A stretch of DNA of 64,000 nucleotides from Christensenellaceae bacterium (GTDB lineage Bacteria; Bacillota; Clostridia; Christensenellales; Borkfalkiaceae). A program made the translations under genes and the position numbers. The stretch spans positions 11,042 to 75,041 of the forward strand of contig JAZQYW010000015.1 in the NCBI GenBank assembly GCA_045633745.1. The letters run 5' to 3'. How positions within the stretch are numbered: position 1 is the stretch's first letter; each line of letters opens with the position of its first letter. Of the stretch, positions 52,017 to 52,811 are shown one piece after another. The notes under the pieces were generated by a model. The model did not search any database, was not told the origin of the DNA, and was given only the letters and a program-made list of their open reading frames with translations.

Positions 52017-52291
52017 AAAATTCCTTTTGTAATAAAAATATACTTTTATATTTTTAACAAAGCCAATAATATATTTAACAAATAAATGTTAAGCCCATAT
52101 TAATTCTAACCTTTTTACAACTTATTAACCATTGTAAATTCTATTTTTAAGAACTGTAATTATTATATCATTATTTTGATGATTTTGCAACAATTTTTTT
52201 ACAAGAATAGAAAGTTGATAGTAATCGCCTACAAAAATCATTTTTATATACAAAAAAACTACGACAAACTCCGTTCGTGATAGGTTGTTTT

Positions 52292-52309
52292 TGGCGCAAC
52301 GTAAGGGAT
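52292..52309 (-). repeat. exact 18-nt copy of the 3' end (T-stem 3' arm + acceptor + CCA) of the adjacent tRNA-Arg
   Basis: TGGCGCAACGTAAGGGAT is identical to 52510-52527. Confidence 0.9.
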
Positions 52310-52507
52310 ACATCTCCGTTTCACTACGATGCCCTTGCCTATCAAGAAAGCTCATCGTATGACGGGCGCTTCTCTCGAGCCTCCCGCAAAACAGTCCACT
52401 GGACTGTTTTTTCGCCTAATGGCGAACACGCAAACTTTCGTTTGCTCGCTCCTAATTCGAATCCCTTACGAGCAACAAAAAAAGATAGGCAAAAACCTAT
52501 CTTTTTT
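52300..52507. ncRNA. GC-rich hairpin-dense block Y (candidate structured RNA, strand unresolved)
   Basis: Closing helix CGTAAGGGAT (52300-52309) / ATCCCTTACG (52461-52470). Internal perfect hairpins TACGATG/CATCGTA, ACAGTCC/GGACTGT, TTCGCC/GGCGAA, GCAAAC/GTTTGC. Ends at the bidirectional terminator GATAGG-caaaaa-CCTATC (52484-52501). Confidence 0.4.
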
Positions 52508-52509
52508 GT

Positions 52510-52586
52510 TGGCGCAACGTAAGGGATTCGAACCCCTGACCTTCGGTTCCGTAGACCGACGCTCTATCCAGCTGAGCTAACGATGC
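52510..52586 (-). tRNA. tRNA-Arg (anticodon ACG), CCA encoded
   Basis: Cloverleaf folded by hand: acceptor GCATCGT/ACGTTGC (one U-U at 4:69), D arm GCTC-AGCTGGATA-GAGC, anticodon arm TCGGT-CTACGGA-ACCGA, T arm AGGGG-TTCGAAT-CCCTT, G73-CCA. Close to E. coli tRNA-Arg(ACG). Confidence 0.9.
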
Positions 52587-52610
52587 TTGTTCATTTTTAT
52601 TAAATTATTT

Positions 52611-52706
52611 TCTGCTCAGTTGGATGGAGCGGAGCAGACGCTCTGTGCCCGAAGCATAGCGTAGGAAATACGATTGACGGGCTTTCTTGCCATAGCCCGC
52701 AGTTTA
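52611..52706. ncRNA. GC-rich hairpin-dense block X (candidate structured RNA, strand unresolved)
   Basis: Three hairpins, given as minus-strand sequence: CGGGCT/AGCCCG, ACGCT(..TGC-TTCGG-GCA..)AGCGT, CTGCTC/GAGCAG. GC content is far above the surrounding AT-rich spacers. Confidence 0.35.
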
Positions 52707-52724
52707 CAGCTGAGCTAACGATGC
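52707..52724 (-). repeat. exact 18-nt copy of the 5' end (acceptor 5' arm + D-stem/loop start) of the adjacent tRNA-Arg
   Basis: CAGCTGAGCTAACGATGC is identical to 52569-52586. Confidence 0.9.
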
Positions 52725-52734
52725 ATTATTTATT

Positions 52735-52788
52735 GTAAAGACTGCCGTTTTGTTTCGACAGCCTTTACATTTTATAATAATTTTTTTT
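52735..52788 (+). terminator. 13-bp hairpin followed by a U-rich tract on the plus strand (also downstream of alaS on the minus strand)
   Basis: GTAAAGACTGCCG-ttttgttt-CGACAGCCTTTAC then ATTTTATAATAATTTTTTTT. A minus-strand TTGACA-17-TAAAAT promoter-like pair (52769-52797) overlaps it. Confidence 0.45.
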
Positions 52789-52811
52789 AAATGTCAAACA
52801 TTTTAAGCAAA

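Follow-up and report, generated by a model that had tools for sequence, protein, structure and literature searches.

The tRNA-Arg locus

The DNA analysed was a 64,000-nt stretch of contig JAZQYW010000015.1 of a Christensenellaceae bacterium (the window; positions are counted along it), and the subject is a tRNA-Arg(ACG) gene within it that is flanked by two blocks, X and Y, each bordered by copies of parts of that tRNA. Read on the minus strand, the order was alaS, promoter, leader hairpin, 5' copy, X, inverted D-arm, spacer, tRNA-Arg, terminator, inverted T-arm, Y and 3' copy (Table 1). An earlier note, made from the sequence of the window alone, had already placed several of these parts, and all of its coordinates hold on this strand. 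The tRNA gene (52510-52586) scored 61.7 bits against RF00005 (threshold 29).

The 18-nt copies of the tRNA termini that had been reported are exact. With 3 mismatches allowed, each terminal 18-mer was found exactly twice in the window, against shuffle expectations of 0.02 (5' 18-mer) and 0.00 (3' 18-mer). Both blocks are closed by helices of tRNA-derived sequence, as the earlier note had also stated. The 10-bp helix closing Y is real, and its inverted copy in fact spans 15 nt of the tRNA (52456-52470; chance expectation 0.08). The helix closing X has 9 bp, GCTCAGCTG with CAACTGAGC, in which 52707-52715 pairs inside the inverted D-arm copy. GC content was 0.43-0.54 in the blocks vs. 0.17-0.21 in the neighbouring spacer, so the GC contrast stands. 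The description of both blocks as structured was borne out for Y and failed for X alone: on the tRNA strand, Y folded at -73.8 kcal/mol vs. -51.8 +/- 4.0 for shuffles (z = -5.5), and X showed no significant structure (z = -1.07). On the opposite strand, a longer Y stretch including the terminator gave z = -7.6. Two features that the earlier note lacked were decisive for what follows, namely the inverted copies of tRNA arms and the occurrence of the same architecture at other tRNA genes.

Table 1. Features of the tRNA-Arg(ACG) locus in the window
Feature	Position	Strand	Remarks
Promoter of the tRNA transcription unit	52769-52797	-	TTGACA, 17 nt, TAAAAT; 11/12 consensus matches
Leader hairpin, from promoter to first tRNA-derived base	52725-52778	-	23-nt arms, 78% complementary; conserved
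Displaced 5' end (distal direct copy, tRNA positions 1-18)	52707-52724	-	Exactly equal to 52569-52586
X core	52632-52706	-	Conserved motifs CGTATTTCCT and GGGCACAGAGC; homologues by alignment and nhmmer
Inverted D-arm copy (tRNA positions 27-10)	52614-52631	-	16/18 identical, read from the sequence
AT-rich spacer, inverted D-arm copy to tRNA	52587-52613	-	Variable in relatives; at times a hairpin (L010, L008)
Intact tRNA-Arg(ACG)	52510-52586	-	CCA encoded; ARAGORN; Rfam RF00005
Hairpin 'L' with A-tract and T-tract, bidirectional terminator-like	52478-52507		12-nt perfect arms, 6-nt loop
Inverted copy of tRNA positions 55-69	52456-52470	-	T-loop, 3' strand of T-stem, start of acceptor; 15/15 vs. 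52518-52532
Y1 core	52367-52455	-	Hairpins 52430-52445 and 52411-52426; hallmark hairpin AAAACAGTCC-AGT-GGACTGTTTT at 52388-52410
Y3 core	52310-52366	-	Acceptor 5' strand (GCATCGT) repeated inside
Displaced 3' end (distal direct copy, tRNA positions 60-77 with CCA)	52292-52309	-	Exactly equal to 52510-52527
Weak hairpin and T7, 3' of the distal copy	52251-52291	-	Possible second terminator

Several of these parts recur in other loci, which are labelled L005-L212 and are retrieved loci of relatives or metagenome contigs. The hairpin at 52725-52778 had been taken for a plus-strand terminator that follows X; this reading was dropped, since the hairpin lies just 3' of a strong minus-strand promoter and is a conserved leader hairpin in relatives. 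Its homologues (GTAAAGGCTGT...ACAGCCTTTAC) directly abut the intact tRNA in L077, L009, L085 and L089, and a TTGACA...TATAAT arrangement lies 5' of the tRNA in relatives too. Hairpin 'L' was not flagged by a strict terminator consensus scan, and terminators like it were present in L034, L077 and L089. In most of the other modules described below, the distal copy is directly followed by a clear terminator.

The upstream gene alaS ends at 52812 (minus strand) and encodes a short-form alanine-tRNA ligase of 608 aa (NF002436), which lacks the C-terminal domain of the 847-position standard model TIGR00344. It belongs to a cluster at 52812-57488 (minus strand) with a cysteine-tRNA ligase and a serine O-acetyltransferase. 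The synteny of alaS with a tRNA-Arg directly downstream is conserved across the clade. A T-box leader (RF00230, 98.4 bits) was located at 45229-45470 (minus strand), ~7 kb from the tRNA-Arg locus.

Modules at the alaS-tRNA-Arg locus of relatives

For comparison, 80 alaS loci from species representatives and 5 from assemblies with 91-96% identical AlaRS were collected, and each locus was searched with its own tRNA for inverted and direct copies. ARAGORN placed a tRNA-Arg(ACG) downstream of alaS in 26 of these loci, and for the closest relatives the sequence itself was inspected; alaS and the tRNA were ~80 to ~1600 nt apart in relatives. A common module plan was found, in which a core of several hairpins has the adjacent tRNA arm in inverted copy on one side and a direct copy of the terminal segment of the tRNA on the other. 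In the Y-type layout, an inverted copy of positions 54/55 to 66/69 is followed by a direct copy from 57-63 to 72-77 (L006, L008, L010, L017, L023, L036; the direct copy only in L005, L009, L020). The X-type layout has a direct copy of positions 1-18/20 and then an inverted D-arm, and was present in L036, L028 (2 tandem units) and L010 (2 units), with exact inverted D-arm copies in L028 and L036. A 5' direct copy was also found in L021, where the D-arm complement is degenerate, and in L019, where the inverted piece is a copy of the anticodon arm.

In this unbiased set of syntenic alaS-tRNA-Arg loci, the copies matched each genome's own tRNA exactly, over 12-15 nt when inverted and 13-21 nt when direct. 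The T-arms differ between genomes (GGGGTTCGAATCCCTT, GGGGTTCGAGTCCCTT, GGGATTCGAATTCCTT), as do the acceptor stems, and the flanking copies follow exactly. In the closing helix of X, compensatory changes (alignment columns 15/107 and 16/106) track the D-loop of each genome.

The modules occurred in different combinations: Y without X in L005, L006, L009, L017, L020, L023, L085 and L089, X without Y in L007 and L021, and both together in the window, L010, L028 and L036. Homologues of the X core were identified by nhmmer in L036, L007, L021, L028 (twice), L010 (twice), L008 and L017; those of Y1 in L008 and, with compensatory changes, in L036 and L006; and those of Y3 in L085, L089, L077 and L009. 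Y is itself a composite of Y1 and Y3, because L008 has Y1 alone, followed at once by the direct copy, and the closest relative, L085 (96% AlaRS identity), has Y3 with an inverted copy of its own (CGTAAGAGA) and neither X nor Y1. Empty alleles could be set against filled ones in three cases (L034 vs. the window, L013/L014 vs. L012, L175 vs. L160); L034 carries a tRNA identical to that of the window, no X, no Y1 and a remnant of Y3 only. Comparison with relatives, one of the checks suggested in the earlier note, thus yielded homologues of both blocks and modules that are gained or lost independently. Since X, Y1 and Y3 can be separated, occurring singly, jointly or in tandem, the single outer tRNA-like shell of 430 nt that the note had drawn around the locus is ruled out; that Y is composite and that a terminator stands between the tRNA and Y speak against it too.

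Relatives have other repeats at this locus. In L024 (7010-7370), tRNA-Arg is preceded by three tandem units of 120 nt, each an altered copy of tRNA positions 1-41 and then a GC-rich segment; they are of a repeat type distinct from X. The Y3 remnant of L034 (7020-7150) lies between 21-nt exact direct repeats, CTTTTTTTGTTGTTGTAACTA, of the terminator tail and not of the tRNA, so other short local duplications happen at the locus. In L028 (2812-2911) there is a partial tRNA copy (43-58 and 61-77, both direct) with a 67-nt hairpin-rich insert in its T-loop; this duplication reaches ~90 nt beyond the tRNA end and is a variant without an inverted copy.

The same architecture at other tRNA genes

Metagenome contigs were scanned for a T-arm followed by its exact complement (TTCGAATCCCTT, N35-65, AAGGGATTCGAA), and at least 120 loci were obtained; the counts in this paragraph are among the matches listed. 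Exactly one arm lay in a tRNA in 100/120, the other being a stand-alone inverted copy past the terminator, and there were 0 convergent tRNA pairs; the rest were truncated tRNAs, contig ends and 3' half-tRNAs from anticodon-loop islands (L150, L200, L203). About 20 tRNA species were represented: Arg-ACG (40), Ser-GGA (19) and Arg-CCG (8), with other Arg and Ser isoacceptors, Asp, Ala, Val, Leu, His and Glu. A distal direct copy was present too at ~60 loci, starting at positions 53-62 and running to the 3' end, and Y-type cores measured ~40-120 nt. Ten loci were array-like (two flanking terminators similar).

The loci fell into at least 72 groups by upstream sequence, with contig GC of 0.28-0.70, and the same layout was seen at a tRNA-Arg(CCG) in one IMG/VR contig. 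Repeated units are visible in L096, L120, L125, L126, L174, L180 and L190, and modules are degenerate in L077, L161, L202 and L212.

The cores are shared between modules of different tRNAs. The largest core cluster spans Arg-ACG, Arg-CCG, Arg-TCT, Ser-GGA and Ser-CGA modules and has a common hairpin, AAAACAGTCC-NNN-GGACTGTTTT, which occurred 42 times in 1.76 Mb of collected DNA; 40/42 of these were inside modules, one of them the hairpin of Y1 in the window. Cores were 72-85% identical between loci, different tRNAs included (Ser-GGA vs. Ala-TGC 82%; Ser-GGA vs. Arg-CCG 78%). Between loci with similar cores, both flanking terminators and the upstream DNA were at the shuffle baseline.

An inverted copy was found upstream at 6/166 tRNAs vs. 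downstream at 117/166. Upstream of tRNA-Ser(GCT) in L012, of which L013 and L014 are empty alleles, the inverted piece is a copy of the anticodon arm. A three-part motif for X had zero matches in the metagenome scan, and a D-arm palindrome pattern had zero matches in viral contigs; the X core appears limited to this clade.

Some structured RNAs and unusual tRNAs were noted on the same contigs. Downstream of a tRNA-Arg(CCG), a truncated Y-type module is directly followed by a Gut-1 RNA motif (RF01706, 86 bits; L126 1785-1861), an arrangement repeated in L111 and L149. In L105, L173, L197, L207 and L211, ARAGORN called 88-nt 'Ser' tRNAs with anticodon ACT, all bearing Y-type modules; these may be a mis-call or an atypical tRNA. 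A drum RNA (RF02958; L193 10169-10280) and an azaaromatic (yjdF) riboswitch (L116 3686-3795) are several kb from modules and probably unrelated.

Integrases at the locus and islands next to modules

The earlier note had offered att-like duplication of the tRNA termini as one explanation, and the locus does behave as an integration hot spot in relatives. In L087/L088, L025 and L007, a ~450-aa tyrosine integrase (Phage_int_SAM_5 and Phage_integrase) is encoded just downstream of an element-borne complete tRNA-Arg(ACG), with a truncated older host tRNA (positions 1-39 or 1-50) left upstream. In effect, the host gene has been disrupted and replaced. These elements (L087 4290-4950; L088 3260-5505; L025; L007) also encode an HTH_17 protein. 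A tblastn search of the 64-kb window with the L088 integrase returned nothing.

The tRNA alleles depart from the AlaRS tree: L034, with 78% AlaRS identity, has the tRNA of the window, and closer relatives do not. In L077 the tRNA has been replaced; its distal copy is of the window type, with 3 mismatches to its own tRNA, and its inverted copy is degenerate. Rapid gene conversion is therefore not what keeps the copies identical. L085 has a direct copy that follows the host tRNA and, within Y3, an acceptor-strand copy that does not, a pattern that suggests DNA-level exchange over RNA co-variation.

Two islands were found to be bracketed by modules. In L160, a 1.85-kb island lies between two whole modules, with L175 as the island-free allele, and single-nucleotide polymorphisms place the exchange within the last ~35 nt before, or inside, the direct copy. 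A 1.4-kb island in L095 is likewise bracketed; the inverted copy of its distal module is foreign (TGCAAGGG vs. own TGTAAGGG) and the direct copy is native. In L150, L200 and L203, larger islands (~3.6-7 kb) separate an intact tRNA-Arg(ACG) from a 3' half-tRNA beginning at the anticodon loop. The half-tRNA retains its downstream Y-type module, so the module is resident chromosomal context for these islands.

Database searches and rejected identities

Rfam 15 was applied to the window at the gathering threshold, to the region at E <= 10 and to 15 further module loci at the gathering threshold, and only the tRNA and unrelated families were recovered. X and Y are thus without a matching family in the scan that the earlier note had proposed, and the tRNA model gave no hit on either block even at E <= 10. 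Sub-threshold hits (SpF41, McaS, microRNAs) were set aside as noise driven by the tRNA, terminator or hairpins. Distant blastn of the X and Y cores against a phage database (50,697 records) gave no match, and motif scans for both cores in viral contigs gave chance hits in coding DNA only. Exact-protein look-up of two flanking open reading frames (ORFs) as listed returned no record. The ORFs in 52125-52580, including those overlapping Y, had no Pfam hit. That X and Y are non-autonomous and non-coding, as had been supposed, is upheld.

Other identities were tried and rejected. A small protein over Y has no Pfam hit, and hairpin indels among family members break every frame. A hammerhead or other ribozyme core in Y was suggested by a CUGAUGA-like stretch, which lacks U4; Rfam gave no match either. 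Y is not a degenerate opposite-strand tRNA, as it has no 5' strand of a T-stem and no tRNA-model hit. The inverted copy is not a diverged direct copy of tRNA positions 45-59: in the window and L017, read by eye, the inverted alignment gives 15/15 vs. 11-12/15 for the direct one, and it also wins at G-U positions. A meaning of the 18 nt like that of a retroviral primer-binding site is contradicted by the start of the direct copy, which varies from position 53 to 62 between loci. A miniature inverted-repeat transposable element (MITE) or other element derived from an insertion sequence (IS) does not fit, since inspection by eye showed no terminal inverted repeats belonging to the inserts that the direct repeats enclose; against a MITE, there is also no further copy in the window, and the hallmark hairpin is confined to tRNA flanks. 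An IS200/IS605 palindrome-associated transposable element (PATE) or omega-RNA was rejected because of the absence of a HEARO hit and of a recurrent neighbouring ORF family and the presence of a target duplication. In full-text searches of a limited literature collection, modules that flank a tRNA and carry inverted copies of its arms were nowhere described.

Interpretation

We propose, with moderate confidence, that X and Y are non-autonomous, site-specific recombination cassettes that act on the ends of tRNA genes. The proposal builds on the anatomy of the locus, the matching of each module to its own tRNA, modularity, tandem arrays, cores common to different tRNAs, the bracketing of islands and the lack of any linked gene. 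A direct repeat that runs from a loop to the gene terminus is the classical mark of recombinase insertion in tRNA genes, and the loop-to-terminus repeats of the modules thus carry the defining feature of an integrase att duplication. X would have inserted in the D-loop of the tRNA-Arg gene and Y (Y1 and Y3) in its T-loop. Each cassette would supply a replacement for the terminal 18 nt and so regenerate the gene, and the tRNA would therefore stay intact and functional; the native end would be displaced outwards and persist as the distal direct copy. The inverted and direct copies would pair into a stem that reproduces the double-stranded target and keeps the spacer or terminator apart from the hairpin-rich core; the stem would be an att site of folded or duplex form, comparable to CTX phage attP and integron attC and presumably used through a single-stranded intermediate. 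The recombinase would act in trans, for example a tRNA-targeting integrase like those at the locus in relatives. Regenerated and displaced sites could take further insertions, giving rise to arrays and bracketed islands, and the cores would probably serve the element (arm-type or single-strand functions) and not the host.

Several points weigh against this proposal. No recombinase linked to modules was found in the window or at at least 100 loci, and an all-against-all comparison of the ORFs around at least 100 modules gave only same-species synteny and no recurrent protein family. No circular or excised form of a cassette could be demonstrated from the available sequences. Since modules with similar cores share neither the proximal nor the distal terminator, the replacement end and terminator may not travel with the cassette, as the model requires them to. 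Core conservation above neutral flanks, compensatory changes (7/29 pairs) and conserved unpaired motifs fit a selected structured RNA equally well, and X lies inside the primary transcript of the tRNA. Integrases are not known to insert at the 5' end of tRNA genes. The crossover in L160 is the sole informative one and could be homologous recombination that landed there by chance (~1 in 6).

The alternative that survives best, though we regard it as unlikely, is that X and Y function as structured RNAs linked to their own tRNA. X would be freed from the 5' leader by RNase P and Y would come from read-through of the tRNA terminator; the closing helix and the 3' ...GCCA tail would mimic an acceptor/T-arm minihelix, with a role in processing or stability, or would switch the cognate tRNA by an antisense/anti-antisense mechanism. 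Placed 3' of the promoter and 5' of the tRNA, X is necessarily transcribed as part of the pre-tRNA. This position of X, the conservation of the Y cores with terminators and upstream DNA at shuffle level, the conserved unpaired motifs and the co-varying helices favour an RNA role. The compensatory pairs came from one core family, and a C:G to T:A change separates the hallmark hairpins of the window and L008; the covariation analysis suggested by the earlier note thus found support in the Y cores and in the closing helix of X, and none in the rest of X. Both strands fold about equally, the tRNA strand slightly better in 18/21 modules, to which the fold of Y (z = -5.5) may be added. A DNA-level role is favoured by the helices, the terminators, the identical flanks, L085 and the bracketed islands. 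Module helices are nearly all Watson-Crick, with G-U only marginally above A-C. Y sits behind the terminator, the promoter scan found none 5' of it, and its core contains a hairpin with T-tracts on both strands (bidirectional terminator-like). The P1 helix of an RNA would need pairing only, yet the unpaired acceptor tail in the flanking copies is also identical to the adjacent tRNA, which exceeds what pairing alone would require. The putative internal partner in L085 does not co-vary, and X has no significant fold, no co-variation outside its closing helix and no Rfam match.

It is less probable still that the modules are scars of large integrative elements (prophages, integrative and conjugative elements (ICEs) or integrative and mobilizable elements (IMEs)) in which internal deletion left attP arm regions between att repeats, the hairpins being arm-type or terminator remnants with no current activity. 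The integrase-bearing elements at the locus in relatives, the 3' half-tRNAs that anticodon-loop islands left upstream of modules and the four degenerate modules are in keeping with this origin. Large elements with an X or Y core at their ends were not found, however, nor did any of the phage records match, and compact modules of the same plan recur in at least 72 locus groups with cores conserved above neutral flanks. Classical attP arms are, moreover, not known to contain inverted tRNA-arm copies.

Template switching at hairpins during replication, with neutral by-products like those of origin-dependent inverted-repeat amplification (ODIRA), has a poor chance of accounting for the modules. 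Strands folding back at the terminator and at the T-loop palindrome (TTCGAA) would yield direct-inverted-direct copies of the tRNA end, with the cores as filler. The direct-inverted-direct order with hairpin turn-arounds does fit ODIRA-type events (PMC11790251), near-perfect 36-bp palindromes of tRNA end, terminator and inverted copy exist (L099, L104, L112), some duplications reach the upstream flank (L012, L028), and the 21-nt repeat of L034 is a further short local duplication. Template switching is nevertheless disfavoured because 0 core-less inverted/direct junctions were found in the 1.76 Mb of collected DNA and the cores are homologous across loci, tRNAs and taxa, with a conserved hallmark hairpin sequence.

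A giant tRNA-like RNA, made of the outer fragments, X and Y as expanded D and T arms around the real tRNA, is scarcely credible: its geometry is feasible on paper and X and Y co-occur in the window and three relatives, but X-only and Y-only loci are common, a terminator stands in the middle, Y-type modules lie at at least 100 other loci without an X-type partner, and the acceptor pairing of the outer fragments, which does exist, is the tRNA's own stem over again, U4-U69 mismatch included.

Comparison with known systems

The nearest known kind, as judged by sequence features, would be tRNA-targeted non-autonomous integrative DNA. Prophages, ICEs and IMEs with tRNA-targeting tyrosine integrases resemble the modules in their direct repeat from a loop to the 3' end, in the regenerated gene with the old end at the far side, and in arrays and island accretion at the same tRNA, with integrases at this very locus in relatives. 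The modules differ in that the insert is only ~120-220 nt, gene-free and without a linked integrase, and in having an inverted tRNA-arm copy, a conserved multi-hairpin core and a mirror-image version at the 5' end (D-loop). Cis-mobilizable elements (CIMEs) and other non-autonomous att-flanked elements of Firmicutes have att repeats and no recombination genes, accumulate in tandem and serve as landing sites. The modules share with CIMEs the att repeats, the lack of recombination genes and the tandem build-up by target, whereas CIMEs are kilobase-sized remnants of ICEs and are not known to have a hairpin core or an inverted copy of their target.

In the attP(+) of CTX phage, direct and inverted target copies reportedly form, by folding, a duplex that mimics the chromosomal site, in work attributed to Val et al. 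2005. The modules have the same order of site, loop, inverted copy, body and site as CTX attP and integron attC, a likeness at the sequence level only, and share with them tandem arrays, non-coding or tiny cassettes and hairpins dominated by Watson-Crick pairs. The inverted repeat that would rebuild a duplex, the feature of a folded att site, is present in the window, in relatives with their own tRNA and at at least 100 metagenome loci. The known systems use dif or attI as targets and XerCD or IntI as recombinases, whereas the target of the modules is a tRNA arm and single-stranded intermediates would have to be assumed.

Repetitive extragenic palindromic (REP) sequences, bacterial interspersed mosaic elements (BIMEs), PATEs and palindromic repeats are likewise short, GC-rich, hairpin-forming, intergenic and often terminators. 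REP/BIME and PATE are genome-wide, whereas the modules were found at tRNA flanks only and have tRNA-derived ends. In the tRNA-like domain of transfer-messenger RNA, YrlA and viral tRNA-like structures, as in the modules, a helix of the acceptor/T-arm type and a 3' NCCA close a structured insert; unlike these RNAs, the modules have no genuine T- or D-arm, their 5' strand is a perfect complement and not the 5' half of a tRNA, and they match no covariance model.

Tentatively, the modules may form a taxonomically broad class matched to tRNAs, made either of mini-cassettes with a folded-stem att site (CTX/attC-like) or of RNAs that carry a tRNA minihelix as a cap and act on the cognate tRNA. In both cases the tRNA-derived inverted copy would be the functional key. 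If the RNA alternative were true, a large unannotated family would exist that is sequence-matched and physically tied to individual tRNAs. If the folded-stem alternative were true, single-strand recombination would be aimed at the universally conserved D- and T-loop boxes and would add to the landing sites open to islands. Genomic islands have their main landing pads in tRNA genes, and small non-coding cassettes, if they routinely clamp on tRNA ends, would multiply attachment sites and shape the accumulation of islands; they would also explain the partial-tRNA arrays and hairpin-rich tRNA-adjacent DNA that annotation pipelines ignore. The architecture of tRNA, terminator and inverted T-arm copy can be searched for in any genome, and offers a handle on how non-autonomous elements find tRNA genes and on possible folded single-strand att sites beyond Xer and integrons.

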